From: Raillietiella orientalis
Taxonomy: Eukaryota
Assembly: GCA_036172245.1 (NCBI GenBank)
Contig: JAYWIR010000009.1
Location: 4,712,001 to 4,776,000 of the forward strand
DNA length: 64,000 bases
Direction of reading: 5' to 3'
In this document: positions 1 to 37,042 of the stretch, piece by piece
Numbering within the stretch: the first letter of the stretch is position 1
How the letters are laid out: each line of letters opens with the position of its first letter
The notes under the pieces: model-generated
Told to the model about the DNA's origin: nothing
Seen by the model: the letters and a program-made list of their open reading frames with translations, nothing else
Database searches by the model: none
Position numbers and translations under genes: made by a program

Positions 1-2739
1 AGGAAACGGTTTCATCTGTTGGGCACGAGAGGATGACATCGGCGATGCCACAGGGGGTGGCGAGATGAAATTTGTTTCCGGAGCGCCGGTGATGACTGCC
101 CGATTTCGGATCCGGGAAGAAGGCTGAAATGTGGATCTTCCCCTCCTCCCCCCCTTCCCCACGAAACTACGTGGATGGACTGTCCGTGAAGCGCGAGGAA
201 TTTTCTGTGCAATTTCCACCTTCGATTTTCGAGGCATCTCCGCAGGCCGCCGCCTCCCGCGCCCGGAAGGCGAGCCGCCCCGGTTCCCGGCGCCGGTTGG
301 TGACTGCAGGGAGGGGGGGGGGCCGCATTCGGGACGGAACGTGCACGAGAGCAAGAGGAAAAGAGAAAACAAAAAAAAAGCCGCGATCGCTGGAACGAAA
401 GTACGGCGGGCTTCGCCGATGCTTGGCAACCCGTAAGTGGCGGCAGGGCCGCTTACCCCAGTTGTTCTCCCCCAGCGACCCCTCGGACGACGTGCACCAG
501 TGCAAGTGGACACACACAGACCTGATGCGGTCGTACAGATGATTCGGCAGAGTCCTTCTGAGGAAATTCTCTAGCTTCGAATTCTTCCTTTCCGGGCCTA
601 TCATAACAGAACATCAGACACATCGATCCGTCTGCACACCTCATAGCCAAGTACGTGTGTGTAAGTCCATGATTTCGGGAAGATATATCGATATACGTTA
701 CCATAGTTATCAAGGTCGTGCAGCAGCTGCGGTGATCCCCGGGAGCAAAGCAGCGGGATTCCACGGTGTTTGTGTGCGTTCTCGTAAAACGCCCGCAGGG
801 GTGGACTCGAAGGGGGGCATTCTTTTTGTCCACCTTCAAAGCGCAACCGCTAATTGGATTTCCTTAAGGTGTGCGGTTGCGTCATTTCCGCTGCCTCGCT
901 GCACCTTCCACTAATTGGTGAAGTGGGGACAAAATGGCAATCCGGTATTTGTTTTGATAATCGCCGGTGGCCATCGCTCTTCTCCATCATTCGGGGGGGG
1001 GGGGAGGGCAGAGGAAACAAATGGGGCGCGTACAAACCAGAGTATGTTCCACATTTTCGTGGGAATTACGGCATGTAGCTGGGAGGTATCTTGCAAGAGG
1101 AGGCGGGAAGGATCGTAAAATGGCCAGCAAAAAATATATCCCCATTTGATTAAAGAAAAAAGAAAGAAAGAAAGAAAGGCAATTGAGGCTACTCCACAAT
1201 AAATAAGTTTCGCCAGAAGGAGCGGCGAGCAGGAGAGAACTCGAAATTTTCCTTGGAGCGAAGGCTGCAACTCCCCATTGCCCCCGCGTGGTTTCTCATT
1301 TTTCCTGAAAAGGCTTCTGCCCTCCTCTTCTCTTCCTGGCTATTTGAACTCGCCCACCGGGCAAGACAGTGCTCGCTGATCTCCTCTTCCCTAAATCTCA
1401 AGCCCGAAGTCCCGAAAGCGAACCGAAATGAGATTCCCATTTCCTTGGATGGGGAAAAGCAATTCCATTCCATGGGTGGGTCAAGCAGAGTCCATTCGTC
1501 GTGGGAACAACCCTCCTCCTCTCCGCGAACAGCCTGACCTCTTGGAGAGTATGCGTTCCAGGACGCGCCATGAGGCACGCAGCTCTTCATAAGAATGCCG
1601 TAAGGCGTTTCCCTCAGCTCGCTTTCAGCACTTATGGACGGACTTTGACAGCCTCTCTTCCTGGAGGGATCCTCCCTTTCTTGGCTTCCCGGCACCCCGG
1701 CTTCCCATCGTGGCTGGACTTCCAGAGTTCCCAACTTGGGCACCGTTTCGTCTTAAACACACAGCGGCTACGAGCTTTGTGGCTATGGAAACAGCCGTTT
1801 CCTGCGCAGATGTCTGCGGAGGTAAAAGAAAAAAAAAAAAAAGCCAAGCCCAGACCGACGTGCCCACGCACAAAATCGATCGCCGGTCTCAACGAACAGC
1901 GCGGCAATGGCAATGGCGGCCGCACGCGATGTCACCACCACCACAGATGGCAGATGGGCGGTCGCGCGCATTGCCGCCACCCTGGAAAACGAGGCATTCG
2001 CGGGGGTGCAAAACGGCCTCTTCGACGAGCTCGCCGTCCATCGGTGGGGAAACGCCAGAGGCGCACGAGCTAGTGGAAGTGCAGCATCTCAGGGCGAGCA
2101 GAAACGATCCCCGGACGCCCGGAAAGAACCGACGGAGCCGAAGCGCCCCGGACATGTCGAGAAATCGCTGAAAGGCGCATAACGATCGCTCGCGAGCACC
2201 GCGTGAGGATGAGGCCCGCCGGGGAGCGAGGAGCCGTCGGAGGGGACAGGGGAGGAGAGGGGGCCGGGTTCGCTTCCCGGGGACATCGCGCTTCTGCCCG
2301 GATCCCGCGATGAACGCGCGGCGTAAGCATCTCCTCTCGCTCCGTTGCCCGCTGGCATGGCATCCGGCAGGGGAGAGCGAGAGGCGCGAGCGGGACGTGT
2401 CGCGGAGGAGGGAAGGGGGGGCGGAAGGCTCGTGGACGCGGAGGGGAAAAGATGGGTCGCGTTCCCGGGTCGGGGAGCATCAGCATCCTCAGGGGGATGC
2501 GACAGGACGCACGAGTCTCCCCTCTGAGCGCCGCTCGCCGCCGAGGGACCTCGGGGCCGTCCCGACGCCCTCCGCCACCCGACCCTCGAGAAGAAATCGT
2601 ATCCTTGGCAACCGCCCCCTATGGTCTGAAATCCGAAATTTTTCGAGTGTCGCTGTGTCGCTTTCTCCCCCCTCGGCCTTCGCCCGACACCCCAAATTCC
2701 CGGAATGTTCTGAGCCCTTCGCTCCCGCCGAGGGCACGC

Positions 2740-5700
2740 ATGAACCAGAATGAGGATCCGCATGCCGGCGCAACATCCCCCCGCTCCCCCTCGACGGACC
2801 CCTCCACACGGAGGGCCAATTGCCCCTGCAGCTGGTACCGCTATCTAAAGGACGCACCCAAACTCACTTGCGACTGGAGCAGGAACGTTCGGGAGTGGCG
2901 GCTGCCTCAAGACTTCAACCAGATCTGCATCAACGGCAGGCTGGAGAAGAACGGGAAGAAAAGTGAGGGGCCGAGGGAGCGCTCGGGGGTGTCGAGGGAG
3001 GGACGATAGGAGAGCCGGAAGGAAGGTCCAGGGTTCCCACCCCCACCTCCCTCGCCCCTTCTTGGCCCCGGTCGGCTCGGGTCGCCTTCGCGACGGGAGG
3101 GTTAGCGGGCGACCTTCCGCCTCCCTCGCTTCGCGCGCACACGCGCGCTCCTTCCGGGACGCGCGGGAGGAGGGCGCCCGCGAGCTCCGCCTCGCTGCCC
3201 CCGAAGCCCCGCGACCGGCCGAGGGGCGCGCGCGCTGCCGAGGGCTCCCTCCCACAATAGGTTTCCCCGGTAACGAGAGGCACCTCGGCGAAAGAAAGCA
3301 AGCAAGCAAGAAGGAGGGGGCAGTAAGGAGACCTCCCGAACAGCTTCTGCTCTTCCTTCTCCCCCTCCCCGAGCTCCCGCTTGCTCCCGCCGCCGCCGGC
3401 TCGCCGTTCGGAGGAGAGGGGGGCGGGTCATGATGAGGACGGCGAGGGAGGTCGCGCGCTGCGAGCACGGCGCCGACGTGAAGGTCGCGCTCTACAAGCA
3501 CCTGACCATCTTCGGCACGGAGGAGCACCAGGCCACCGTGTGGTGGTTCCCGAAGTTCTTCTGCCAGTCGAAGCTCTCCGACCGGAAGGACGGTACCTCC
3601 CCTCACCTGCTGCTGCTGCTACCGCTCTCCGCCAGCACCAGCCCCCACGACCACCCTTCCTCTCCCCATCATCATCCCATTGCTGCTGCTGCCGCCTCCG
3701 CTACCACTGTGCCCTCCCTCCTCCCTCCTCCTCTTCCTCCCATCTCCTCCTGCCACCGATAGTACCGCTGTACTCTTCCTACTGACATTCCCCTTCTCCT
3801 TCTATTGCCACCACTACCGATGTCCCCATTGCTAATATCCCCTTATTACTGCTACTATTACCACTGTCCCCTACTACTGATACTAATGCCATCCTCTTCC
3901 TCTTACCACTGCTATTACGAGCCTCCTCCTCCCCTTTCTACTAATGCTGCTACTGCTACTGCCGTTTCCCTCCTGCTATTACTGCCACTACTACAACTAC
4001 TTTCCTCTTCATACTACTAATGCTGCTGCTGTTCCCTTCCAGTTAATACTGCCACTACTACAACTACCTTCCTGATACTACTATTGCTACTCCGGCTACT
4101 ATCCTCATACGCCACTACTAATTCTGTTACTACTACGACCTCTGTTACTAAAACTACTCTCCTCCTCATACTACCACTATTAATGCTGCTACTACTGCCA
4201 CTACTACAAGTACTCTCCTTCTATTGCTACTATCTTCCTACCACTACTGCTCTCACTCTGCTGTTTACTATCCTTGGTATGGATGCTGTGCTCTTCCTCT
4301 CACCCCTCCTCCTGCGCCAATTCACCAGGCGCTTGCGCGCGACGGGTGCCACGTGGGGCCAACCCCTCCCCCTCGTTTACTACCAGCGCCGTCTCCGATG
4401 CCCCTCCTCCCGCAGGTAGCAACGCCTGCACCATCATCTGCATCATCATGGCGCAGCGGATCTTCGAGAATGGCATCCGTATCCACGGGCATCCGGACCG
4501 GCCCCTGAGCAAGCAGCTAATCACCACCTTCGCCGAGTCCATCTCTGACGGCAACACGGTCCACGAGAAGCTGCTGAGGAACGGCCAGCTTTGCCACATG
4601 AACCTCACCGTCCCCGAGGCGCTCAACGCCTGCAGAGACAAGACGGAGTGCCTCACCGAGTGGGTGGGTGACCACCCGCCCTGCCGCCTCGCCGCCTTCC
4701 TCAGAGGAGGGAGCGTCCACTCCCGTGGAACGCTGCCGCCGTCTCGGCCTATCGTAGGGTCAAAGTGACCGGATCCACACGAGCCGGAAAGCGAGGATGG
4801 GGAGCGGGTCGGTCCCCACGAGCCGCCTCGCGGGGCGCCCTCCTCTGAACGCGGGAGGCCGCCGCTCGCCCCCGGCATCGCCGCTCCGCGTGCCGCTTGA
4901 GGAGGGAAGGAGAGGTGGAGGCGCTGCGCCGCGAAGGGAGACTCCCCCTTACTCTTGCCTTTCTCCCGGAGTCCCCTGCCCCTCGCGTGGGAGGAGCTGG
5001 AGGGTGCGGTGACGGCCGCCTGCGACCTAAGCGGAGACCGCTAGGCGGTCAGCACGATCTCGCAGGGTCCCCGGCGGTCCCGAGGGAAGCTCGTTGCGCG
5101 CCCTGCTATTCCAAGGAAGGGTGGGGTGGGACGGGAGGGCACCTATGCGCCCTCGCGGTCTCCACAGGAAGAGCCTCTCCTCCACCCGTTCCAATGGAGA
5201 ACCGCGGGATGCCCCCTGTCCGCCCGCAGCTCCCCGGCGCGCGTGGCATCCGCGATGCCGCGGAGCACGGCTCCGTCTCCTCGCAACGTCATCTCCTGGG
5301 CGCGCTTCGCGCTCGTGTTCCCGACTCAAAGAGCTCCACCACCCGCCCCCGGCGACTCGACCGCTACCGGAAACCTCTCCGCAAGTAACAGCAACACAAG
5401 AAGAATAGCTTCTGGCCGTTCTTCTTCTTCACTGCTTCAGCGACGAGCGCCCGGGGGCACTCCGAGTCTGGCAGACGGGGGCAGGCATCTTCTTCCTCCT
5501 CCCTCCTCCTCTTCCTCTTCTCTCCTTTCCTCCTTCCCTTCCTACTCTCCTCCTCCTGCTAATATTCTCGCTTTATCCTCCCCTCCTCCTTCCCCTGATG
5601 CCATCTGATGCACTTCCAGTACTACGTGCAGAAATCCTTGATGTACCTGATGCCCATGAGGCAGTGTCTTTACGAAAACCTGCAGCACGGGATGAAGCAG

Positions 5701-6067
5701 TGGCGCAGCAACCCTCCTCCCAACGCATTCCCCGACCTGTTCATCATCCTGATAGCCGACTCCCGGAGCGTACTGTTGGTGTACCAGCAAGAGCTGGATA
5801 GAGTGAGTTCTTCCATTCCCCGTGTCGCGCTCCTTGGGAGTCTCTCCATCCCCGAGAGGCGTCCCTCACGGGGTGCGTTTCCAGGTAACCCTCCTGGACT
5901 CGCACTCGCACATGCACTCGGGATCCGTCATCGCTCAGGTGGACGTAGACCAGATCCAAGACCTCTGCTCCTGGTACGACGCGGTCTGCGTGAAGATATT
6001 CGGCAAGAGGCCTGACTGCTTCGAGCTGTCTTTCCTCTACTTCAAGAACATCAGGAGCGCGAAGTGA
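2740..6067 (+). CDS. Putative viral-tegument-like (VTD / peptidase C76-like) cysteine protease/deubiquitinase; alternative first exons A 2740-2962 or B 3430-3592, shared exons 4416-4663, 5632-5802, 5885-6067 (274 aa or 254 aa)
   Basis: Canonical GT-AG sites with consistent phases give an open protein: ...WWFPKFFCQSKLSDRKD|GSNACTIICIIMAQRIF...FAESISDGNTVHEKLL...EW|KSLMYL...FIILIADSRSVLLVYQQELDR|VTLLDSHSHMHSGSVIAQ...FELSFLYFKNIRSAK*. Gln sits 13 residues before a Cys at a helix start, and D-S-H follows a run of hydrophobic strands. This is the layout of herpesvirus UL36/M48/BPLF1-type DUBs. The gene structure is well supported; the function is inferred from motifs. Confidence 0.75.
3600..4270. 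repeat. Degenerate (CTA/CTG/CCT)n trinucleotide low-complexity tract within the intron of the VTD-like gene
   Basis: Continuous ctactactg/ccactacta/cctcct-type units; these produce the spurious poly-Leu/Tyr/Thr ORFs at 3805-4419. Confidence 0.85.
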
Positions 6068-8223
6068 ACGCCACCTTCCTCAGTGGAGATAGTGGATGCT
6101 GGACGGGGGGCTGCAACGCAGCAGCGGGACGCTTGCAAATGGGCCGCAGGAAAGCGCCCCTTCGCCCGACCCGAAACTTCCGGAAAACGCTACCATTCCA
6201 TTTTTTTACGTTTTTCTGTTTTTTTTTTTTTTTTAAAAAAAAAAAAAAGGCTCGCCTGAGAAGATGATAAAGATGATTCCCCCCCCTCCCCCCGCTTCCT
6301 TCCCAGGCTGGATTTTAAAATGGGTCGAAATGCCTCTGGTTCCTCCTGCAGTTCGAAGCGAACCCACGCGGGATTGATCGACGACACGCAATGATCGTCA
6401 GTCAAACTCCCGTCGAAGCGCGGCATTCAGAAGTGGCGTCGCTCCGTCCAGCGTGGGCAGAGGGCGTCTGCCCGCGCGTGGCGGCGGTCCAAAGGATGAC
6501 CGCCAACAATCGATGGAGGATTCCAGGGACCGTGCGGTGTTGGTGGAGCTTCCAGGGACCGCTTCCGGGTCAGACGTGACGTTCCGTTTCCAGAACCTTG
6601 GGCAGCCATTCCAGCAGTCCGTTTCCTTCCGGAGGCTGCTGTTCCGTCGAGGTGCTCTCCGGCGTTCCGACCGCAGCAGTACCAGAGGGCCAGAAAATGA
6701 GTTCGTTCATGTATCGTGGAGAGGAGGCATTTTCCCCTTTGCTGATAGTCATTTCAGCTTCAGCGACTCGCGGATGAATTTCGTGTTTCGGCCACGGTGC
6801 CGTGGGATGGTTGGTAGGCTTGGAATTCACGGGATCTTTGAAACTCCCGGCACTTCATCAGCCATCTCGTTCGCCTTCCCCGAGGACCGGTTCGGACACT
6901 CGGACGCGGAGGGAGCACCAACCGAAGCACAGAAAAGAACGGGAAACGCACAACGGCCTCGAATCACGCGGCCTCCTCTCAGCCACAACACCGGAACCGC
7001 CCATCTGGAGCTTCCTCCTTCTCAGGAAGGAATCGTAGCTGCCGGTGGACATGCCTTCAGCATGCTGGTCCGCAAGAGGCTGCGAGGCCAAGGTCTTTTC
7101 CGCTATTCCGAAATCCACATCCCGAGGGAGTGAGCGAACTTTGTCTTTGGACGTGTGAATGATGGAAGAGCTGAATTCCTCCCCCCTGGACTCCCACAAG
7201 CCGCCTCCCGTTTCCCGGGATACTCGAGCTGCTCGTGTACTGACTGTTCCAACCCCCACTCTTCTCATTACCGGACCGCCTATCCGGAAGGACCTTGGGA
7301 CAGAATTTCGTGTTCATTGAAGGGTTCGTTACCAACCCGGAATGGCCGCCGAGGTCCGCGGAACGGACAACGTAAAAAAAAAAAAAAAAAAAAAAAAAAA
7401 ACGGCAGTCTTCCTGCGACCAGGGACGCGGTCAATCAGCTCCCCCTTACGGCGCTGTGCATGGATTTCAACTTTGCAGGAAGAGCGTCTGTTCAGCTGCT
7501 TTCAGAAGGAACGGAGCGGCCACGATTCGAGCAGGCTGAATTCTGCTTCGTGCAAACTTTCGTGAATGGTGCCAGAGGCGTCCTTCGTCGGCGCCAACGG
7601 TAGAGCTGAGAACAACAGAATCGTGTCGATTGATTCGACACCAACAAAACTCTGGGACAGAACTGCTCCTTGTTTTGATTGAAACGAAATGAGATTTCTG
7701 AGGTACAGCTCTTGAAAGATAAGATACACATCTTTTATGAATGCGATCGCATTTGAATGTGCAACCCAGAGAACCCGCTCGCGTAGAGCGGAATGCACTC
7801 CTCGCGTTATACGAGCACCCACCGTACTTGCAAATCCATTCGATTCAGCATCAACAGAATCTCTCCTGGCTTACCCATTTATGTACCGCATAGACTGACC
7901 AAAAAATCAGTTGGGCTTTGTTCTTTGAATGCTGGCATCAAAATTCCATTTCGCTCTTTCTGGGGCTGCAATGCACGAGCTTCAGTGTTTGCCAAAAGCA
8001 GCGTCCACATTAATGTTCAAAATTATGAAAATCATGAACTTTAAGGCAACGAAGTGTCATAATGGGCAATGATTTGGACATGTGCTATGCCCCTGCTTGA
8101 AGGTTGTAAAGTTATTGCCCATTACAAATGCGAGGAGCATTTCAAAAAGGCGGATCGGATAGAAAGGAAGAACAAACGGGAGGAGCAGAAATGCATCGGT
8201 GGTTCGAAACACACACAGCCATG

Positions 8224-8522
8224 TCATTCCTCTACGCGGTCGCCATTTTTCTTCCAAGCACTTTTGATCCCGTGGAACGAGCTTTTTGGAACCGCCTGCA
8301 TGGAAGCTCCGCCGCCTGGGAGTTCGGTCAGTTCGGCAGCACTGCTCTTTCCAACTCCCCACTTTCCCCTTCGAGATGGAAGAAGCCGCTTCTTGAGGTG
8401 CGCGAAGGAAGACAGGTGGTAGCCACCAGGCGCGAGGTCAGGACTGTAAGGTGGGTGATGGAAAAAGTTTCCATTTGAATTCCTGAATTGTCTGGATTGT
8501 GCGGACAGCAGTGCGTGGGACC
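8224..8522 (-). mobile_element. Decayed Tc1/mariner (mariner/SETMAR-type) transposase C-terminal fragment
   Basis: With frameshifts the minus strand reads TAVRTIQTIQEFKWKLF-HPPYSPDLAPGGYHL..FAHLKKRL...KLVPRDQKCLE-KNGDRVEE*. This matches the mariner HPPYSPDLAPSDYHLF motif (catalytic Asp mutated) and the 'KC...GDYVEK*' terminus. No TIR identified. Confidence 0.85.
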
Positions 8523-9098
8523 AAAAGGGTGTGCTTTCGGTGGACTTTGTGGAGCCTGGAACGACCACCACCACTTCGCCAGACCACTGTGTAGAAACAC
8601 TCTCGAAGCTGCGGTGTGCCATTCAGGACTGACGACGTGGGGGGCTGAGGTCAGGAGGAACGGTTCCTCTCCTTCACGGCAACGCGCGTCCGCGCCCTGT
8701 TGTCCAGACATCTGAGCCCTTCCATTTCGAAAATTGAGCGTGCTCAAAAATCTCAAGGGAATGGAAGTGTGAAAATAAGCACTTTGGATAATCTTGCTCA
8801 GTGAACTCAGTTTTCAACTTCACCCAATTCGGTTATTCAACACGAAAACGGAAGGCCCAGTACATTGTCTTTCAGCTAAAGAACTATGTTGTTTCGAGTT
8901 GACTGCAGAGAGTGTTTTTACATTTACGATTTGGGGAACGCTTGACTCATCTGGTCGGAGGCAACGTGGTTTCTAATTACAGGGGGGCATTCATGAACTT
9001 CCGACACATCAAATGTGTCTTCGTCATGTTCTTATTCAGATCTTACATTTCCCTGGCATCTACGCATAAGTCCGAATGAATTAATATTTTAGAGGGCC

Positions 9099-9425: not shown

Positions 9426-12400
9426 TTACCCAAGAGGATTAATTGGCTGTGCCTGATTGTTACTTTCCTGAGTTCCAATTGCTTCATGCATTTGCATTTC
9501 AGAGGGAGGCCTGAAAACAAAGTACACTTTCTTAGAAATCCCAATATATCTTCATGAATTTGAACAGGAACAAAATCTTATTTGAATAGGAACTGAAACT
9601 ATTCGATTCAAAATTCTGATGGCATCAACACGGGATTAACATTAAAAAATCAATGGGATTCAACTTATTTTGAAACCCGGATTTACAATTAATGCAAACA
9701 TGTGATACCTAACAAAAGTACCTGTCCGGACTAAGCCCAAGAAAAAAAAGCATCAAATCATCAAGTTTGCAAGACAGTGAAGTGATTTATACATGCTGAA
9801 GAAAATGGAGCATTATTTTATTCAAAGAATTATTAAGAAAGGAATGAACGATGCAAAGAAGTTACCTTGAAGGTTGCATTTTGGGCTTGGGCATCTTGTT
9901 AAGGAGCATTTGTATCTCTTTCTTTTCATCATAAGAACGCCACAATTCATAGAAATGTAGTATGTAGGCCATGATCTCTAAAATCTTCTTTAAATCACAG
10001 TTCAACTCAGCAAACCATTGTTTGGCATCTTTCTGGGCAACCACACAGGCCATATGAAGAGCCGCTACAAAAATTACAGCTCAATACCAGTGGGAATTTT
10101 ATATATATCTTCATACCAAGTGAAATCATGAATGGAGGGTACAAAAGTGACACATCTGTACGTAGACTATCATTCACAATCTTCCATGCAAGAGGAAGAA
10201 GTTGCTCTTCATATCCTAAATCTTGCACATACTGTATAAGAGGACTTTATGAAACAAATATCAAAGACATGAAGCTTTTACGAGTTCCCTTACCGATAAG
10301 GCTGATATACAACCAAGCAACAGTCCATCATCTCCAGGAGATAGAATTCACATTCCAAGATATGATTGGCACGATAAGGATACTCTTGACCATAAGCATA
10401 TGAGAATTTGTTTTTCACTAAAGAGCAGAACATATTCCAAATGTTAAATTTCAGTTGGCAATACACACAGACACTCTGGCAAGTTGACATGAGCCGTGTG
10501 TGGGAAATCACACCAAACTCTTCCACTTTGGATGCTAAGAAAAGGCAAGTTGGTGCCAAAAGCAGAGGATCAATACATTTCAGTGAATTGCGGGCATACA
10601 ATCTCTTCAAATACACTGTGGCTGTAGCAATGACTTGCTGGCGCACTTTCAATTGTTCTCCCAAAACCTGAATAACTTTATCAAATATTTTTTTATTTTC
10701 ATGTTTCATCACAGCAATCACAGAATTAGAATGAGATAAAATCATTAACAAAACACTTCACAATCTTTACAAACAATCCCATCTGACAGTGACTAAACAA
10801 CTGTTTTGAAAATGCACTCAATGATGCTGAGCAAATTTTGGTGTGGCTGGTAACTTTGTGTATTATCAGGATCTTAAAAAATAGTTTCAACATGTTACAA
10901 TGCTAACTCATAATTCCAAATGAATGAATCTTCTAGATTTCTAGGTCACACTACATTCAAACTATGTATTCACACCAGAAATACAAAACACATCTGTAAC
11001 ACTATAATACAGGAAAGCTAAAACATGTTGTTCGTTGATTTTTTCCACTCTGCCAACTGAAATTTGTATTACTTCTGAACTTCATTTAAAATGATGTCAA
11101 CTTGAGAAAGTAAGAGAGATGAAGTCAGTACTCACCTCTCTTACTATTACTTTGTATTCACGGATCCAAAAGTTTTTGGTAACACAAGAGTAACAAAGTA
11201 AATTAAAAATGCACAAGTAGAACCACAAGTCTGAAAAGCTATGCAAGATAAAAAAAATCCTTTAGAAACTATGTTTCCAAGTGTGGCAAAGTTAACTGTA
11301 TTTGAAATCGATCGTTTTTTATACACCCCCCTTGTGACAAAAATTAATGGATGTTCCAAATATACCTAACATGAGCAGCTGCCTTTAATACCAAAAATCT
11401 TTAGTAGCTAACTGTCACAGAAATAAATATGAAAACTGCTTCCTTTTGCCATTTTTGCCAAACACAAAAGCATGCAGTGACTGTACAAAGTTAGTTAAAA
11501 AATCTTTTAAGAACAATCAAGCAGTGCTTTTCAGAAATAACCAACTTGCCAATGACTGGTTATAAATTTGGATAAAGACTATTTTTGATGTAAAACCTTA
11601 TCAAATCAGAAAACTATTAAATGAGAAGCCACATATGTAATAATTTATAAAACCAAATTAAATGTTATCAATGGCAGATATCCTCCTGTAATTATAACCT
11701 AAAATACAGTTCAGTACTTCTTACTTATGCCTTGAGATACCATACAAAGAACACACAAAATACGAAAGTTTGATATGTGCATAACTTTTGCTGTAATGTT
11801 TCCTTTTTCTGTACCTCTCAATGAACTAAAAAAAAAAGGAAATGATCTTTCGCCACTAAACAAATTACCATATTCGGTGCATTTTGCTTTCCAGTTTCAA
11901 ATCCGTAAACAATGAAACAAAGTTGACATCTGCTATACATAGTTTATGTTAACATACCTTTGCACCTGTTGAAACATATTTCAAATGTTTTACGCTTTCA
12001 AGTTGGATGTCCGTTAGTGCAGAAAAAACTGCACTAACCGCATCACATACGGGGAAATAAAAAGAATGCCGGCATCCTGATGAAACCCCAATCCAAAACT
12101 TAAACAAGTATGGAACAAATATTACAAGTATTTAGGTTTATTCCACACAGCGAGGATACACTTCACGTGGTCAGAATTCGTATTATCTTTTAAGAAATGG
12201 GGGATGGGGGGGGGGGAGAAGGGGAAGCAAAAAAACAAAAGAAAAAAAAAACGAAACTTACAATTGGCAAAGAAGATCTGAACTTTTTGGTACTCCTCCT
12301 CGGAAAGAAATTGCAAGTCCGTTTGCCTTTCGCGAATCAAATCCTGCTTGTCAAGAAGCCATTGCTGACTACGGAATTTTCACAAATGCACCCAACCTGT

Positions 12401-21855: not shown

Positions 21856-22001
21856 ATCTCCAGAGACGCTCGCGCGTCGTCACTGGTGACCGGGAGGAAT
21901 TTTGCAGAGAGGTACTTGCACACCAGGATGTCGGCCTACTACATGTCCGAGGCGGTGGTCATCAGCTTCTCCGACTCCCTCCGGCGGGAGACGATCAAGT
22001 T
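21856..22001 (+). pseudogene. Inverted, mutated duplicate of part of the SDR gene (intron plus catalytic-motif exon, 23764-23909)
   Basis: Gapless 146-nt alignment to the reverse complement of 23764-23909, 18 mismatches by hand count (~88%). Includes intron sequence; YSMSK becomes YYMSE; ends in a TAG soon after. Confidence 0.9.
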
Positions 22002-22071
22002 TGACTAGGATTCCACTCTGGAGGGCAGCCTCCTTCTCCGTAGCCCTCCCGTGGGCCCGGGCGCCTGCCCT

Positions 22072-22918: not shown

Positions 22919-24680
22919 CTAACGCAATGGAGCCGGCGGTAGCACAGGAACTCTGGGCTCGAACCTGCGGAAGTACTGGTCGAGGGTCTGCGCATAGAAC
23001 AGCCGCAGCAGCTTCTCCTTCAGCTGCATCGGGAGGTGGGGGACGTATCTCACCTGGAAAGAGGGAAGTGAGGAGGGAAATCCAGTGAGAAGATATACTT
23101 ACATCCGGTTTGATGGCAGCGACTGCGTGGACCAAATCGTCGATCACGAGGTGAATTTTGGACTCCGGGAGGCCTTGTTCGCTCATCTTCACGATGCTTT
23201 GCTTGAGTGAGACGCCGAAGGTAAACAGGGGGAATTATGAGGAGAGGGAGAGGAGGAGGGGATGAAAAGCCTGGCAGAGCCCGCCATCCCCTTGACAACG
23301 GCGCGGCGATTCTTCCCCGCGGCCGAGAGTGCTGCGCGGTGCTGCCGGCGCGCTTTCGCTGAATCAGCGAGACCAAGACCTCACCACCAGATGACCTTTT
23401 GGTGCCCCCTTCCCCTGTCCTCTCCCTCCCTCCCTCTGCTACAGCACTACCTGGAACGCTTCGAAGTACTTCTCTCCGTAGTCACGTCGGATGTTCTCAT
23501 TGCAGGAGTCCCACATCTTCTGGGACTCCTTCAACAAGACCGATGGCTGGGTCATGTTGGTTCTAGAAAGATAGGCGGGGTTTAGCAGGGGTTCTCTCCC
23601 TCTTCCGATGGCAAAGGGAGCCGCATCAGGACGGATGCGCGCGCTGGGTGAGGCCTGTCCTGAGGACACGCTGGGAGACCACCTCGCAGCGGCGCCGCAG
23701 CGCAGAGCGCCATGCCAACCGTACCTGTACTGAGAGGGCTCGACGAGATGGACGGACACCCCGAACTTGATCATCTCCCGCCGGAGGGAATCGGCGAAGC
23801 TGATGACCGCCGCCTTGGACATGGAGTAGGCCGACATCCCAGTGTACGAGTACCTTCCTGCAAAATTCCGCCCGGTTACCAGTGCCGACACGCGCGCGCC
23901 TCTGGAGATGCGAACCGGCTAGGCTAGCCAGGAAGACGACCCTTCCCTTGGACCTCCGGATGAGGGGAAGGAACTTCTTGGTCATCCGGACCACGCCCAG
24001 GGTGTTGACTTCATAGATCCTGCGGAAGCCTTCCGAGAAGGGGCACCACTCGATCTCAGCCACGCATGCTAGACCGGCGTTGTTGACGAGGGCCCAGAGA
24101 TCTGAAGAGGAGAGGGAAGTGACGGGTGAGGGAGAGGCCGGCGGCGGCGAAAGCATGCGCCCGGGCACCCGCGGACCTCCCCCTCTCCGGCCAACAGCTG
24201 GGGAGCCCCCACCTTTCGAGTTGTCCTGGACTTTACGGAAGGCGCTCTCCACTTCCTCGTCCTTAGTGACGTCCAGCTGCAGTACATGGACGTTGGGCGA
24301 GCACAGAGTCTTTATCTTGACCGCGCCGTCCCCTTTGTGGTTCAGGCAACCGGCGAATACGATGAACTGCAGCTGGTCCAGTCTCTTCACGAGCTCAAAG
24401 CCGAAGCCGCTGTCGCATCCTTCCCGAAGAAGAGAGGTAGCGCGGGAAGGGGGGGAGGGGCATCGGCTTGCTCACCTGTGACGAGGACCGCCTTCCCCTC
24501 CCTCTTCTGCACCAGGGGCGGGTTCACGAAGGAGCGAGTCAGCCTCTTGAAGACATCCCCCAGGAAGATCCAGGCCAACGAAAGCAGGCAGACGCCCACC
24601 AGCAAGGGCCACGCCTTGGCCGCGTTCAGCAGGACCGCCGCGACGAGGGTCAGTGCCACCAAGCTACGCTTGCTGAGGTC
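22919..24680 (-). CDS. Membrane-anchored classical short-chain dehydrogenase/reductase (RDH / BDH1 / 17beta-HSD2-like); exons 24680-24476, 24419-24213, 24101-23916, 23857-23725, 23562-23451, 23201-23103, 23053-22919; start-codon exon not located
   Basis: The spliced frame gives an N-terminal hydrophobic anchor, KAVLVTG|CDSGFG (TGxxxGxG), LQLDVT, LWALVNNAG, EVNTLG, SKGRVV, YSMSK (YxxxK), DSLRREM..FGVSVHLVEP and DYGEKYF. GT-AG introns, phases consistent; minus-strand AATAAA at 22801-22806. Confidence 0.92.
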
Positions 24681-27600
24681 CTACGTGGAGAACCGAGGAA
24701 GAAGAAGAAGAAAAAAAAAAGTGGCACAACCCGGAGCTGCTTTCCCTTTCTTCTTCCTTCACTCTTCTCCCTCCGTTTCCTCCCCCCCCCCCCCTCCCTT
24801 TCCCCCAGCCTGGGCCCCGCGTCTCCGGCTCAGAGTCGTGAAGGCTCCTCAAGAGAAAGGTGGGATGGTAATGCGGCAGTGGTACACTCCCTAAAGCATC
24901 CCCGAGCAAGACTTCATGAAGGAGGGAGGAGTCCTCGATCCAGGAGCCTCCTGCAGCAGGAGCACCCAAAACGATGACTCCATGAGCCGCGCGCACCAGG
25001 ACTCGGCGGAGGCGCTTCTCTTCCCAGGAAGAACGGGGCAGAATCCCAGACTGCTCCCCCTCGGGTCCTCTCCCGCGCGGGGAGTAGCAGCAGCCCGCGT
25101 TCGTGTGAGAGTAGGAAAAAAAACGCGCCCGAACAGGAGAGGAGCAGGGCGCCTGAGCGGAGGACGTCGCGAAGAACGCGCGCGCGTCTTTCCCCGCGTC
25201 CCTCTCGGGAGTTCAAGGGAGCGGGAGGGAAGACGAAACCCCAGACCTGTCACCCCTCATCCGGGACGAACTCTTGCTGTCCATGTCGAACCCTCCCCGA
25301 TCAGGAAGGAGGGAAAGAGACGGAAGGTCACCTGGACATGAGCGGCGAGACCCTGCCTCAACTTCCGATGACATGAGCAGCACCACTTGCTCGGGAGGTC
25401 TCCCTGGGGCCAGGAGTGCGGGCACACCAGGACACGCACTCTTGCGACCACTGCTGCTCGCCATCCCTCTCGGAGCACGGAACAAGGGGAAGGAAAGGGA
25501 AGGACAGTATGCGTTCGAGACTTAGCTGGGGACAAAGTCCCACTCGTTACTGTTCGGGACGGAACGGGAGGGCTCCTCCGCAGCGCTCACGCATTCGCAC
25601 GGGGAGTACCAGTCATGTGGCGGAACGGGAAAACAGCAGGGGGAGGGGCGCGCGGTGGCGGCCCCATCTCCTGCGGCAGACGACGCACTGCGCGCCTCCA
25701 TAGCCGACGCTGACGCGAGTCTGCGCGGCGCAAAAGTGCGACCTCGGCAACGAGGAGCGGCTCAGCCCCCTCCTTTCGACGGTGCTGCCGTCGACTCTCC
25801 GACGCCGGCTTGTCGCCGAGGTAACGCCGATGCCTCCCCCCCCCCGCCGGCGCGCTTGCGCGAGCTCCGGAGCACCCTCCGCCTGCCGGTGCACGCAACC
25901 CGGTGCTGCTTTGGAGCTCGCACGCTCCGAGCCGCAGGTGCATGTTCGAGATGCAGTTGTCTCAGCAACCCTCCGAAGCATCCCGGAAAAAAAGGCGGAC
26001 AGAAGGGGGAGAGGGCAAAGTGAAGCGTTCGGCACTGTCTTCCTCGCAGCTCCTCTCCTGTCTCGCAGCCAGTCGCCAGAGCAACAGCGGACTGTGACCG
26101 CTCACGCACGGGAGAGAGCCTCCGACTTGCGGTTGGATCGCACGGGAGGCGGCAGCGCGCCCTCCTCCTCGCAGAGCTGCTCCAGGGCCTGGGGTGTGGC
26201 GGGATGGGAGGGGTGGGGTAGATGGTCACCTTCAGGAGGGAGACAAGGAAAGGAAGGATGATGGACTGGCACTCCTACTTATTTCCACCGCCATGCCGTG
26301 GGCGCGTCCCTCTCTCCGGAGGGTTGTTCCCTGCGGACATACTCCTTCCGCAGCTATCAGTATCGCCTCCAAACACAAAAGCTCAGGAACCTTCCGGACT
26401 GGACCAATGAATGGGTAATGGGGAACCCCCTTCCCCGAATAGTCCTACAGGAGGAGCGCTGTCTCCTCCAGAAGTGGGAAAACGCCCACATAGATCTCCG
26501 AGGAAGGGGAGTCCCTTACTGTTGCTCCGGGGAGCAGTGACGAACGCAGGTGCCTCTCCATCGCTGACAACGAGAGAGGGCGAAGAAATTTCTTTAGAGA
26601 TTCGCGCTGCAGTGCAGCAGCAGGAACTCGGCACTGCGTGAAACCTCTCCAGGACAAGCGCCGCAGGGCGTTTCATTTTATAATTGCCCAAGGAAAGAGC
26701 AGCCGAATCCACGGGATATCTTTTCAGAGTCCTCCTTCAAGAAGCAGTGCGCAGGTGCCCCCTGAGCGCTTCTGTCATGGGAATCCCACGGGATCGGGGT
26801 GCCCCTCGAACAGCGGCAGGACCGCGCGGAAGCATATGCGGGTTGAGTGCGAGCGTGCATGCTGCCGCCTCCCCCCCTGAGGGGCAAGCAGCTGTGAGAA
26901 GCTTCTCCGTCTGAACAAGAGATGGCAGAACGGGGGGAAATACGGCGGCGATAGGACAGCACGCCTCGTTTCCGCGCTGCCGCTGAGGCGCGAAAACTCC
27001 GGAGGGGGAGAGAAGGACGGGGGTAAAGGTGGAGCAGAGATTCCTGCTCGCAGTTCTTCCCTTTCTTCCCTCCCTCTCCTTTCCTCCCGCTCGGCGCCGA
27101 GCGCTCGAAGCACGCCGCCCGAACTGCTCCTGCAAAAGGCCGCAGGAAGGAGTAGGAGGGCGAAGTAGGAGAGCGAGGGACATGCGCTCGCGCACGCCGC
27201 CTTCGTCTGGGGAACGGACGACCTTTGCGAGAGAGGAGCCGCGGCGGTTACAGCCACAACCACCATCCGCCGCCCTCACCTCGAGCGCGGCAGCGACTGC
27301 CAGCCGCTAGAGATCTCTGTTGCCGCTGCGAACTAAGGGACGGCAGGGGTGGATGATGGGTCTGGTCAAGACTCCCCACCCTCCCGCGTGCTTATGGTTT
27401 CGCCCCCTTCCTTCCACCGCCCTTCAAGCTCCGAAAGACACTATTGCTCCGCTACCCCTGATCAGGTCGTCTCTTCCCCTCTTCCGTCCTCTTCCCCCTC
27501 AGACAATGACGGGGTCAACCGTCGGGCTGGCTGCTCGGAGTTTAGAGCAACGAGTACGATGGCAGCACGCGGGCCACTCTCAGCTGCTAAAGACGCCGCC

Positions 27601-31470: not shown

Positions 31471-34400
31471 ATGGGCGGCTGGGAGGCGGCCAACGAGGTC
31501 AGGATCCTGTGCGCAGCCACCGTCCTGTCCAAGCTGAGCCTGCTGCTGTGGATTCTGGCCCTGAGCACGAGCCACTGGTATGCGCTGGACACAGCCACGC
31601 CGATATACATAAACGTCACGGAGAAGTGGTTCATCAGCAGCCACTCGGGCATCTGGAAGTACTGCAGGACGACCTTCACTAACCAGAGCGGGACAGGCGT
31701 TGTCGTAGGTACGAGAGGGGGGGGAGGGGGGCGGGGGTGTACGAGAGAGCAGCCGCGCGTCCCAGCTACAAGAGGGGGACGGTACGGTGGCTGCGTTGGC
31801 AAGAGGGGTTCCTCTTCCGCTCTCGTTCAAAAAGACGAACGGAGTCCGAGGGACGGTTCGGACGGGAGAGGAGGCTCCGCGGGCAGCTCTCGCTTTTTGC
31901 CCTTCCGCTTTTCCCAGAACACATGATCCGCCCTTGCTCAGAGATCAGCGAGAGCGACCACGAGTCTCGCTGACCGGTCACGGCTGCTCCGTCAGCCTGC
32001 CCCACGCGACTCCCCCTCCCGCCTCCAAACCCACATGCACGTGCACTTTGACACGGACTGCCCCTCGTGATCCCGTTTCGCCCATGATTCTCGGGGAAGA
32101 GTCGAGACGGACGCTCCGCGTCTCCACACCCCCCAAGCCCTACTCACGCCGATCCGCCCAACGCCTACGAACCTCCCATTGTTGCCGGCTGTCTTTTCTT
32201 TCATCCCCTGTTGAAAGCTGCAGGCTATTTTTGCTCTACCATCTTCATTGCTGCTGCCGCATCTCTCTCCGCCCCCCCCCCTCCCTTCCTCTTTTCTCTC
32301 CGTCTCTCTCTCTCTTTCAAATTTCGTTGCAGATGCTGAATAAATGTGCAGCGGGCAACGCCTTCACAAAGGACGGCTTTTGCACGGGAAGAAAGAGCGA
32401 TCAAAACGGATTGCATCGTTTGTGGCAGAGAGAGCTTCTGGCACCTCCCATTGAAGGAGGAGGAAAGACGGGAAGCAGCACGAGCGCTCTTCTGCGTGCG
32501 ATTGCGTGTTGGTCTTTCTTCCCTCCGCGAACACGCACACGCGGTTCGCTGGTTCAAAACATCTTCCATTTCTTCTCCTTCCCCTCCTCCACGTTTCGAA
32601 TGCCTGCGGCTCACGTCGGTGCGTCTCCTTCACCCCTCCGTGCATTGCTCTGGTGTTATTGGCATTCCCCCCTCCTGGAAGAAAAGGGACGCCACCCATA
32701 TAAATCAGATGGATGTAATCCATCTGATTTGCACGAGTCCGGAAATCAGTCGGTGCCGCGGAGGACCGAACCGCAACCCCGGAAACGCATCGGAACACGG
32801 GAGATTGCGGATTTCTGGAACGAGCGAACCGGAGCCAGGGAGACGAACGCCGTTGGGTGCGGAAGCTGTGCTCCGTGTTCGGATGCGAATTCACGCCTCT
32901 CGGTGATGCCGAGGCCCGAGAGCATCGGATCTTGAGCGTCCCGGAGTGCGAACACGGCCGAAGCGAACACCACACTAAAAATAGCCACCGACACAACACG
33001 CGCTCAATCTCAACATTCCCTGATAGCCTTGGATTGTTTTCAAGAAGGAAAAAAAAAGGGAAACACGAAAACATGAAAAAAGCGGAGCGCAGTAAATACG
33101 CGAAGGTAATTTTAATGTAACGTACGGTACTTCCGACGTGCGCTCGAACGGATGCAGCGGATGCACGTCTTCGCGAAGTGGGTGTTCACGAAGAGTCCGA
33201 TCGGGGAAATTTGGAACGCAACCGTGGTGAAGCTGAGACCCAGAAACACCGAGGGAACACTTTCCGCGTGTGCTCCTCTCCCCCCCTCCCTCCCTCCGCC
33301 ACGCTTCCCTCCCTTGCTGCTGCTGCTGCTGCTGCTGTTCTTGTGGTGGTGGTGGTGGTTTGTTTGGGGAGGGGACAGAAGCATTCGAGCGGGAAGACCT
33401 CGAAGAGCCTTACCGTTGTGCTTCACTCATCCGCGGATCCCCCCTCCTCCCTTCCCCCAGTGACACGGCTCGCCCAACTTTCAGCCAGCCTTCGCCTAAC
33501 ACCATTTGCCCATCACTTGAGAATCTTCGCTAAACCCCTGAGGTATCCGTCATTGCAACTTTCGTTCCGCCGTCATTTTGGCACTCTGGTGGTGCATCGG
33601 CATTCACAGCCTCCCCTCATCTTCCCGGGGAGCGGAAATTCCGGCGTTTTCCGGCCTCTAGGGCTCACAGCAGGTCGCGAAAACCTATTCCGGTTATTTT
33701 TATTTGGAAGCATCGATCGTTACCACATTTTTCTTTCCTTTTGCAAATTCCTTTTGAGCAGAGTCACTGCTGGGAAGCGATCGGCAGCCACCTTTTCCGA
33801 AAAAAAGAAAAGAAAAGAAAAGAGAGGAAGCACGTGAGATGCCCTCGCGAGATGAAATGGGAGATTTAAAAAAAAACAAACAGAATTTCTGCGGAACGCG
33901 AGGGCAGGGCTGCCCTTTGCAAATAGCCGTAAACCTTTCGCAGGAGGATCATTCCCTTGGTGCCTGCCTGCCTGCTGCTCGGTGAAGTGGAGCTGCTGCT
34001 GTATTTTCGTCGCGAACCTCATCTGTTGTGCTGTCGCGGCGTTTTTGTTTTTCTCTTTCACTCTCTCACCTTCTTCTTCCTCTTCCCCCTTCCTCCCTTT
34101 TTCGTTCCTTTCAACTTCTTGCACCTTCGTGTTGAGACGTCTCGAAAAGTCTATTCCGCGCGGAGAATCCTACGGAGACAAATCGTGCCTTTGCCACAGA
34201 GGTGCATCTTCCCTGACAGCACGGCGTCACCACCCCACCCCCTGCTTCCACCCGCGCCATTCTCCTGAACCCCTTTTTTCCTAGTTTTTGCAAGCGTTGG
34301 TTGATCGAAGATGGACCAACGTTGCCGCCTGCGCTTCGGGGTTGCCCTAACGCCTTGCGAGTCGGCGTCTTGTAAGGTTGCTGGCGCCTTGCCCAGCCAG

Positions 34401-37042
34401 AACAGTTCTTGGTAATAACAGCGCCGACGGAAAAGACGAAAAGCGGCGGCGTTTCCTGCCGCCTGCTTGGTAGCGCGCAGCCACAAGCGCTGAAGAGGGC
34501 GGCGAGCTGACCGACAGCTTCCGGGAAGCACTCGGCCCGCGCGCGCTCGGCAACCGGCGGGCGCCGACGACGGTTCCCCAGCCGGACGTGCGTCCCCGGA
34601 CCTAGCCGACACTTCGCCTCCCGCAGCCTTTCCCGAGCGCGATCCGACGGATCCCGTCCTCGCCGTCGGCCTCGTCCCGTTCCGGGAGAGGGGGAAGGTG
34701 ACACTGCCGACCCAGTTTTCGGTTTCGTTGGACGGGAGGACGCTGCGCCCTGCGCCTGCGTGTCCCTCCTCTCGCAGCCCGCCCGCCCGCCTTTCCCCTG
34801 TCTCATCCGCGCCGTGGTGGCGACGCGCGGGCAGGCCGTAGGAGGACGGAGCCGCCCGATGAGCCCAGCCCCCCGAGACATCACCCCGACTGCCGCCGTC
34901 GACTTCCTGCTGGTGCCTCTCCGCGCTCCCGGAGACTCTCGGGTCACTCCCTGCCCGCGTCGGCGCGTCTCTCCAGTGTCGCCTACGAGGGGATTTCATC
35001 TCTGCCTCCATTTTGGGTCCAGCACTCGGGGTCTCCTCCGACGGCCTTTCCCCCTCCCCTGGACGCGGGAGACGGGGGGGAGGAAGAGGGGGTGATGCGA
35101 GCGACTTGCCTGGAGTTCTTTCAGCTTCGCCCTCCTCCGTCCGGGACCCTTGCGTCTAACCCCAGCCGCAGGCGGCGGTCCCGTCCGGGGCGTGTCGGGA
35201 GGCAGACCGCTGCGCCGTTCGGGAGCTGCCACTCCCGCACGGGAGATGCCTCCCTATGAGCTTCGGGCGCTCCCCACCACGCGGCTCTCCACGGAAGGCC
35301 TCTCTGCGACACCCTGCCCTCCGTGCCCCAGCGCGCCGGCCTCCTGGGCCAGCTGCCGGAGACCTCGTGACTCCAGGAGAAAAAAGCAGCAGGGAGGAAC
35401 GCCTCCGGGACTGCCTGCGCGCTCCGCAGCGAGTCCGACGCGACCCGACCCCACCGCCACCCGTCCTGAGAAAACCCAAAAATCCTCCTCCTCTTATCTT
35501 CTTGCAGAGACGTGCCGCTACTACAGGTGGTACCTGCCCGCAGCCTCCGTGGTCCAGAACCCCCTCGTTGACTCCAACTTCTTGGGTGAGTGCTCTCTCT
35601 GATGTCCACCCTCGCCAGAGGCGGCGGCCCCGACCGCGCAGGACACCTCCTCCCCATCCGCGAGCCCAGGCGAGGGTGGCGCTACGCTGCTGCCACCAGA
35701 GGCCAACGGGGAGTTTCCTTGGAGACTCTTCCCGGTGCCGAACCGCGCTTGCTCCGAGCGGCCCTCCGCGCGCTGACCACGGGACACGTGAACTGTCCGA
35801 TCGGCCCTCGACCTCGACCGCCACGTGCCGGTGGCGACGACGGCGGGCTGGGCCGCACCCACCCCACTCCTCGTCCCCCTCCTGCCTCTCCGGGAACCGA
35901 CCGGAAGTGCCCCTGTCGCTCGAAGGAGAAGCGGTGTCCGTCGCCGTTCCTGCCTGAAGCTCTCCTCCCACTCCCCACCAGGCGCGGGAAGGGGGAGAAG
36001 GGGAACTGGATGACCCCCTCCCTCACCTCGCGTAGGCGCCACCGCGCCCCGCCAGCCGCCTAAGCCGACCCGACGATCCCTCCAGGCAGGGAGGAGCGCC
36101 GACTCACAGCCTGCACTTCTTGTCGTTTTCCAGTCTTCCGGAAGACCAACGCGACCTTCAGCGTGGTGGTCCTCTTCCTCATGCTGATGGCCATCTTCTT
36201 CTCCTTCTACTCGCTGAGGCATCCCCTGTACATGTACAAGAGGCTCTCGGGAGGAATCCACCTGTTGTCCGGTAGGGTCGCGCGCGCGCGCCGGCGGGCG
36301 AGCTTCCCTCTACGCGAACCACGCCCCGCGCTTGGGTCGGAGAAAGCGCCGCAGCCAAACGCGGTGGCCACTTCGCATCCCCCTCCCCCCTTCCCCGCAG
36401 TTCCATACACCGCCACTTTGCATCCCCCTACGCCTCACTTTTCAAACGGTGGTGCGGGAACACCGGACCCATCGTGACCAACGCGTTAACGGCATGCCAC
36501 TTTAATGAATTCCCCAGGGAGCAAACCTGGAAGAGCCACGGAGCCCTCCCTCGTTGCCGTGCATCCTCTGCCTCACGCGGCGATCTTCCCTTGCAGCGAT
36601 TGTCGTCGAGCAAGTGGCTGTTCCCGGAGAATGCCGGAAGTTTCCAGGAGCAACGTTTTGTTTTCGTTTTTTTTTTTTTACTGGTCCTCACGGATTTTAA
36701 AGCTTTCTAATTCACTTACCTCCCTCCCCTTACCCATCCAGAAAGAGGGAAAAACAACAACCAGAGTTATCGTATTATCATACGTCTCGATGTTACTCAG
36801 TTCTTCCATACTTCTACGCACGCACACACAGTGGGATCACGGCAACTGCGCCGTCGATGCAGACTGCAAAAAAAAAAAAAAAAATGCGAGCTTTCTCCTC
36901 CCTCTTTTTTTTTATTTTGTTTTTTTTTGCTTCCCTCCCCCGCCCGTTGTCTTATTTTTTGCAAGCTGGGCGTCACGTGGCCGGTTGCTCGAGCAACATT
37001 GCTGTTGCTTGCCCGGTTCCACACGTGCAAAAAGCAAAAGCA

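Follow-up and report, generated by a model that had tools for sequence, protein, structure and literature searches.

We analysed a 64,000-nucleotide stretch of the Raillietiella orientalis genome (positions 4,712,001 to 4,776,000 of the forward strand of contig JAYWIR010000009.1, assembly GCA_036172245.1; hereafter the window, in whose own coordinates all positions are given) and found in it a compact gene on the + strand, at 2740-6067, that combines two ATG-initiated exons, A and B, with a single core made up of exons C, D and E (Table 1). By predicted fold and by catalytic motifs, this gene belongs to the stand-alone invertebrate type of viral tegument-like (VTD) cysteine deubiquitinases, with deubiquitination as its predicted activity. 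Its layout is that of a variable-first-exon gene, with two paralogous 5' exons that each have their own ATG, donors of the same phase and one constant set of exons. Judged from the sequence, alternative first exons on a constant core are the most economical reading of the locus, and one toward which we lean slightly.

An earlier annotation of this stretch (the original prediction) had proposed that two swappable first exons each supply the Gln half of a protease active site. Its exon coordinates and sequences were all reproduced, as were the phase-1 ends of both exons, their in-frame joining to the single Cys-bearing exon at 4416 with both spliced frames open, the Gln-to-Cys spacings (18 via exon A and 13 via exon B) and the junction peptides. 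Exons A and B are both 3n+1 nucleotides long and exon C is 3n+2, and therefore either first exon would be in frame with C. The codon split at the junction with C would read AGT (Ser) after A and GGT (Gly) after B, giving KKSSNAC and KDGSNAC, respectively. The spliced product A+C+D+E is 278 amino acids (aa) long and B+C+D+E is 258 aa long, both being open with the single terminal stop codon of exon E. Unspliced read-through of the exon A donor runs into a TAG at 3007-3009.

Table 1. Predicted exons and splice signals of the VTD-type gene (slashes mark exon boundaries; HMM, hidden Markov model; E, expectation value)
Feature	Coordinates	Strand	Signals	Predicted content and basis
Exon A	2740-2962	+	ATG 2740; donor AAA/GTGAGG after 2962, phase 1	First coding exon, 18-spacing type; N-terminal strands, WRLPQDFNQ motif with the Gln, long pre-Cys loop ICINGRLEKNGKK
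Candidate atypical acceptor	3340-3373	+	Pyrimidine tract ending in GAG	Would allow in-frame splicing of A to an extended B
Exon B	3430-3592	+	ATG 3430; donor ACG/GTACCT after 3592, phase 1	First coding exon, 13-spacing type; encodes WWFPKFFCQSKLSDRKD
Exon C	4416-4663	+	Acceptor CCCGCAG/GT at 4416; donor TGG/GTGGGT	Catalytic Cys (SNACTIIC) and helical subdomain, common to both isoforms; family HMM positions 41-127, E 6e-33; alone recovers 35 homologues
Exon D	5620-5802	+	Donor AGA/GTGAGT	Central beta-strands, common to both isoforms; family HMM positions 127-184, E 9e-14
Exon E	5885-6067	+	TGA 6065-6067	Asp-x-His motif (LLDSHSH) and C-terminus, common to both isoforms; family HMM positions 183-238, E 4e-24

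The intron between B and C (3600-4300, +) is CT/CTA-rich and of low complexity, with a 67-bp unit repeated 2.1 times, especially at 3942-4083. On the 3' side of the stop codon, neither AATAAA nor ATTAAA occurs within 1.1 kb (6067-7200, +), and a long run of T followed by a run of A lies at ~6205-6250.

The two N-terminal modules and their counterparts in other organisms

An HMM of the N-terminal module was built from the N-terminal segments of 19 homologues, with the part encoded by exon C excluded, and was run against the complete six-frame translation of the window (1861 pieces, 105,922 aa), where it matched only the open reading frame (ORF) of exon B (28.1 bits, E 1.1e-7) and that of exon A (20.5 bits, E 2.6e-5); the next-best piece reached 5.4 bits (E 1.4). 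The motif W-x-[LF]-P-x-x-F-x-Q, which the original prediction had read in both exons, occurs exactly twice in these 105,922 residues, once in A and once in B. A full-family HMM found two N-terminal copies in the window together with single copies of C, D and E, so that the one shared catalytic core that had been proposed is indeed the sole core in the window. Measured against the family, A and B are genuine, intact N-terminal modules that carry the family-invariant Gln, which bears out the proposal that both exons supply the Gln half of the active site.

An exhaustive HMMER search with exon C recovered 35 relatives and a profile search 22, some of them new; the named homologues come from orthopterans, beetles, a sawfly, cockroaches, a stick insect, a water bug and a nematode. 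Invariant in the family alignment are the Gln, S-x-A-C-T, an Asn, a Glu and D-x-H (16 of 16 sequences, and 12 of 12 in another alignment). A search with exon C for longer homologous proteins gave no match, and a homologue search with P0016 returned only P0016 itself, on a 2017-nucleotide Logan contig.

Among the 31 homologues in which both residues could be placed, the Gln-Cys spacing is 13 in 15, 15 in 10 and 18 in 3 (P0050, P0016 and P0026), with spacings of 12, 14 and 16 found in one homologue each. We noticed that exon A aligns without gaps to the spacing-18 proteins, including their five-residue insertion, and shares with them the signature Q-[IV]-x-I-N-x-R-x-E-x-x-G-[KR]. It matches residues 4-50 of P0050 (BLASTP, 45% identity over 47 aa, ungapped, E 4.5e-9), the match stopping directly before the GSNAC of P0050, and residues 289-330 of P0016 (BLASTP, E 7e-7). 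Isoform A as a whole is colinear with P0050 (residues 28-277 versus 4-256, 51% identity, E 1e-93). Exon B carries the signature WWFP-x-x-F-C-Q-S-x-L-x-D-R, which is common to P0009, P0014 and P0015 (BLASTP, E 3e-9 to 9e-7). By these alignments, A and B carry the signatures of two different natural N-terminal subtypes, and each module type is found joined to a core in proteins of other organisms.

The position of the intron before (G/S)SNAC also recurs in the family. The gene-model fragments P0007, P0008, P0010 and P0024 begin right there, the models P0032 and P0047 read through an insertion at this position, and A and B both stop at it. It should be noted that the position is not universal, as the metagenome locus L004 has the motif and the Cys within one exon. 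This locus, a 4.3-kb contig, holds two intron-containing copies of a distant VTD gene (2956-3861 on the + strand and 119-961 on the - strand). In all, the metagenome scan found 36 distant loci of 23-41% identity, mostly intronless, and P0050's own contig is not among them.

The G+C fractions at the first, second and third codon positions (GC1/2/3) are.44/.44/.79 in codons 27-74 of exon A and.54/.41/1.00 in exon B, in which 54 of 54 codons end in G or C; those of exons C, D and E are.50/.41/.91,.52/.28/.82 and.49/.33/.87, respectively. In the ORF upstream of A's ATG (2452-2739) they are flat (.66/.67/.65), and upstream of B's ATG (3274-3429) they are inverted and non-coding-like (.71/.77/.54). 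Ranked by codon-position bias among 127,714 segments of 144 nucleotides from both strands, exon A falls in the top 0.6% and exon B in the top 0.01%. The codon-position composition agrees with A and B both being coding.

A chance ORF, arising in a GC-rich promoter region and matching the motif by coincidence, might be suspected behind exon A, as the ORF around it stays open for 231 codons like many in this GC-rich DNA and BLASTP found no match between A and B. This reading, which we hold to be exceedingly improbable, was rejected on the profile match (E 2.6e-5 versus 1.4 for the next piece), on the ungapped 45% identity over 47 aa to P0050, which ends exactly at the GSNAC of that protein, and on the codon-position bias, which starts only inside exon A and not in the upstream part of the ORF.

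At the DNA level, the best blastn match between A and B has an E of 0.053 and the two are not alignable, in agreement with the earlier statement that their nucleotide sequences have diverged beyond visible similarity; as far as these comparisons reach, the paralogy of A and B emerges only when the family as a whole is considered. The A/B split appears older than the divergence from species with cores of now only 44-53% identity, and over such a span a copy free of selection would be expected to degenerate; we therefore infer that both exons are constrained.

The original prediction had offered, as an alternative, that A is spliced into B. Through the AG at 3372-3373, A would be joined to an extended B, and A-B'(3374)-C-D-E would yield one protein of 351 aa with tandem motifs, of which only the B copy would stand beside the Cys. 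What was claimed for this route, namely its compatible phase and the pyrimidine tract before the AG, stood up; the tract is long and the frame is open. The route would need, however, a GAG acceptor, and G at -3 is unfavoured in acceptors; the whole + strand is pyrimidine-rich here, and the linker 3274-3429 has the non-coding-like composition given above (.71/.77/.54). Moreover, 20 of 20 motif-bearing homologues are single-copy, with no tandem pair among them, and the exactly placed phase-1 donor of exon A, like its subtype loop, would serve no purpose. We consider the tandem protein quite improbable.

A tree was calculated from the core only (from the S-x-A-C motif to the C-terminus, 26 rows), leaving out the fragments without most of the core (P0007, P0008, P0010-P0012, P0017, P0019, P0020, P0022, P0024, P0025, P0027-P0033, P0036, P0038, P0039 and P0052-P0058). 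In this tree the window core, which has a very short end branch, clusters with all three 18-spacing proteins (95/91), and the group so formed is sister to the P0009/P0014/P0015 clade (90/85). The same grouping of the core with the 18-spacing proteins was obtained in smaller trees (82/90 and 81/90), and the 18-spacing proteins are the closest kin of the window core. According to these trees, the A-type and B-type modules belong to one superclade, with the window core near its base. An old tandem duplication of exon 1, possibly partitioned into paralogues elsewhere, would fit this pattern; capture of an exon from a paralogue, rather than such a duplication, is a possible origin as well.

Assignment to the VTD deubiquitinases

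The VTDs are defined by a Cys and an invariant Asp-x-His downstream of it (Erven et al., 2022; PMC9741609). This "mirror-image" order of the triad is present in the window gene, SNAC being encoded by exon C and LLDSHSH by exon E. For P0006, a homologue with 51% identity to the window core, the AlphaFold2 model has a predicted local distance difference test (pLDDT) score of 93.4, and the papain-like alpha-beta-alpha fold predicted in it can be superposed on VTD structures that have been solved. Foldseek ranks six VTD chains first among the PDB matches of this model, those of 8ADC, 2J7Q, 8ADD and 8ADB (E 1.3e-7 to 7e-5, template modelling (TM) score 0.44-0.62), i.e., of Wc-VTD1 (8ADC and 8ADB), of M48 (2J7Q) and of the zebrafish Helitron VTD (8ADD). 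AvrPphB comes next after the VTD chains, and the same order of relationships, VTDs and then AvrPphB, was reported previously (Erven et al., 2022; PMC9741609). In the ESM Atlas, the nearest clusters carry PF04843, the herpesvirus tegument N-terminal domain, in 25-32% of their members.

Stand-alone invertebrate VTDs include ms(3)76Ca of Drosophila and five genes of C. elegans (Erven et al., 2022; PMC9741609). Like these, the window gene would encode a single domain of ~250 aa, is independent of any transposon and has the Cys, the invariant Asp-x-His and the tegument-deubiquitinase fold, a likeness that is drawn from the description of those proteins and not from their sequences. The homologues of the window gene in orthopterans, beetles, a sawfly, cockroaches and a nematode match the taxa given for this type, and the known invertebrate VTD genes show male-specific expression (PMC9741609).

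The herpesviral UL36-USP/M48-USP (2J7Q, PF04843) resemble the P0006 model in fold (Foldseek E 1.4e-7, TM score 0.51-0.53), but the structural alignment has ~13-14% identity and there is no PF04843 match; unlike UL36 and M48, the window gene is a cellular gene with introns and not the N-terminus of a giant virion protein. In M48, the Gln and the Cys are presumably Gln10 and Cys23, a spacing of 13 as in exon B, numbers that our literature search did not confirm. UL36 and M48 also have in common with the window gene the Cys, the Asp-x-His and a conserved upstream Gln that is described as oxyanion-forming, and the Gln of the oxyanion hole is strictly conserved in them (PMC8123002). In the window family, the Gln upstream of the Cys is invariant in two alignments and present in both exon A and exon B, and it is presumed to be the oxyanion residue.

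In the bacterial Wc-VTD1, a short helix and residues before the catalytic Cys shift by ~8 A on ubiquitin binding, the same segment sits at the expected site of the proximal (S1') ubiquitin, and mutations in it lower the cleavage of di-ubiquitin; the segment just before the catalytic Cys is the likely proximal-ubiquitin site according to the authors (Erven et al., 2022; PMC9741609). In the P0006 model, the equivalent of the first exon forms two short strands and a coil that bears the Gln and runs into the Cys helix. The 18-type loop in the model of P0016 (pLDDT 89-97 per 10-residue block) forms a small hairpin-like element, with strands 323-324 and 330-331 paired. By analogy with Wc-VTD1, we infer that a swap of exon 1 would alter a part plausibly involved in S1' recognition, with the Gln kept.

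Alternative or single use of the first exons

If A and B are alternative first exons, they would be two copies of one first coding exon that diverged long ago, each supplying the N-terminal beta-hairpin, the invariant Gln and the loop to the catalytic Cys (18 residues in A and 13 in B), and exons C-E would supply the catalytic Cys helix and the Asp-x-His strand. Transcripts started upstream of A would use the strong donor of A and skip B, because B, as a first exon, lacks a good acceptor. Transcripts started between A and B would use the donor of B, and promoter choice alone would be enough for mutually exclusive use of the two exons. The outcome would be enzymes of 278 and 258 aa with an identical core and different pre-Cys loops. 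Given that the counterpart segment of Wc-VTD1 lies at the expected proximal (S1') ubiquitin, these isoforms would most plausibly differ in chain-linkage preference or activity.

Several results weigh against this account, either in its exons or in its family assignment. The donor of exon B, GTACCT, is without the usual consensus bases at +4 and +5, and the ATG of exon A has a C at -3, which is a weak start context. The two-module arrangement was found nowhere else, as the motif is single-copy in all 20 homologues that bear it and the 6 metagenome loci in which the N-terminus was matched include no case of two modules, in a comparison set of protein models or distant, mostly intronless genes that is a poor test of the arrangement. 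BLASTP found nothing between the A and B proteins at E <= 100. The approximately unbiased (AU) test did not reject the joining of the window core to the exon-B-like clade (p 0.38; p 0.10 in a smaller tree), and therefore either exon may be the one that originally belonged with the core. As to the family, Pfam gave no family for the exons or for 13 full-length homologues (PF04843 included), phmmer with exon C against PDB sequences gave noise only, and the best match of the family profile to PDB sequences, Wc-VTD1 (8ADB), is weak (E 0.12), with the Cys and Asp-x-His segments colinear. The oxyanion role of the Gln is assigned by analogy with the herpesviral enzymes.

The weak donor of exon B and the weak ATG context of exon A would also suit a gene that uses a single first exon and makes one enzyme, the other exon being a copy of a paralogue's exon 1 that was silenced or captured only recently and has so far escaped decay. 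Many long ORFs occur in the GC-rich sequence here, and isoform A alone matches the nearest homologue, P0050, end to end. Both exons, however, keep an ATG, all family-conserved residues and a GT at the exact phase-1 position, and both have a coding-type excess of GC3 (54 of 54 codons in B;.79 versus.44/.44 in A). Their lack of nucleotide similarity and their clade-specific signatures point to old copies; an unused one should therefore be degenerate by now, except in the case of a very recent copy from a paralogue. We regard the use of a single first exon as unlikely.

Alternative first exons on a constant core have counterparts in UGT1A and the clustered protocadherins, in which paralogous 5' exons, presumably with their own promoters, share one constant set of exons and the variable exon is the specificity part. 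Unlike those systems, the window gene has only two variable exons, its variable part would give a residue of a protease catalytic centre and not a whole binding domain, and its promoter use is predicted. Alternative splicing can arise from tandem exon duplication, and alternative 5' exons can later be partitioned between duplicates, e.g., in fish mitf. The occurrence of A-like and B-like N-termini in two sister clades resembles a partition of this type, as would be expected if an ancestral two-exon gene had been partitioned. A fuller proposal, in which the window gene keeps the ancestral two-promoter state, promoter choice switches linkage preference or activity, and the modules later split into the 18-spacing and the 13-spacing "FCQS" sister clades, is tentative and, taken as a whole, rather unlikely.

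The VTD deubiquitinase family and the variable-first-exon design are each already known. Consistent with the statement in the original prediction that no description of this arrangement was known, our search of the literature for alternative first exons with protease active sites found none that was relevant, and none of our searches turned up a published case of a variable first exon that supplies a portion of a protease active site; the supplements of PMC9741609 may list the subfamily. The text of PMC9741609 contains none of the words "isoform", "alternative", "oxyanion" and "Gln", and therefore does not describe a duplicated first exon.

Recognition of the VTD deubiquitinases as a class in eukaryotes dates only from 2022 (Erven et al., 2022; PMC9741609). 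The window gene would give a natural experiment on what sets their linkage preference, with two versions of the pre-Cys segment on an identical core. If both isoforms are made, alternative promoters would exchange part of a protease catalytic centre, and the locus would show clearly how a tandem duplication of an exon can feed the diversification of an enzyme. Should a single exon be used, the gene would be unexceptional within a known family, apart from its leftover exon.

Surroundings of the gene in the window

The G+C content of 2-kb blocks ranges from 31% to 66% across the window (1-64000), and GC-rich genes (GC3 ~0.8-1.0) lie beside AT-rich ones; in 1-8000 the observed/expected ratio of CpG is ~1. 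An ORF at 8227-8813 on the - strand contains a ...PPYSPDLAPGGYHL... stretch, which we take to resemble the C-terminus of mariner-type transposases, a likeness that is unconfirmed; the ORF has no Pfam match at E <= 0.001. A cyclin C-like gene, recognised by a match to Pfam Cyclin_N (E 1.4e-11), has exons at 9862-10757 on the - strand, i.e., ~4 kb downstream of the deubiquitinase gene and on the opposite strand, in far more AT-rich DNA; we assume this gene to be roughly 70-75% identical to human cyclin C, a level suggestive of an invertebrate. Four stretches on the + strand (21865-22044, 24481-24684, 31489-31704 and 36109-36300) have a GC3 excess as strong as that of the deubiquitinase exons and probably belong, as exons, to genes without annotation; Pfam matched none of the long ORFs tested there. 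At 23442-24471 on the - strand, two ORF pieces match adh_short (E 4e-19 and 7e-8), which therefore represent a short-chain dehydrogenase/reductase (SDR) gene with at least one intron.

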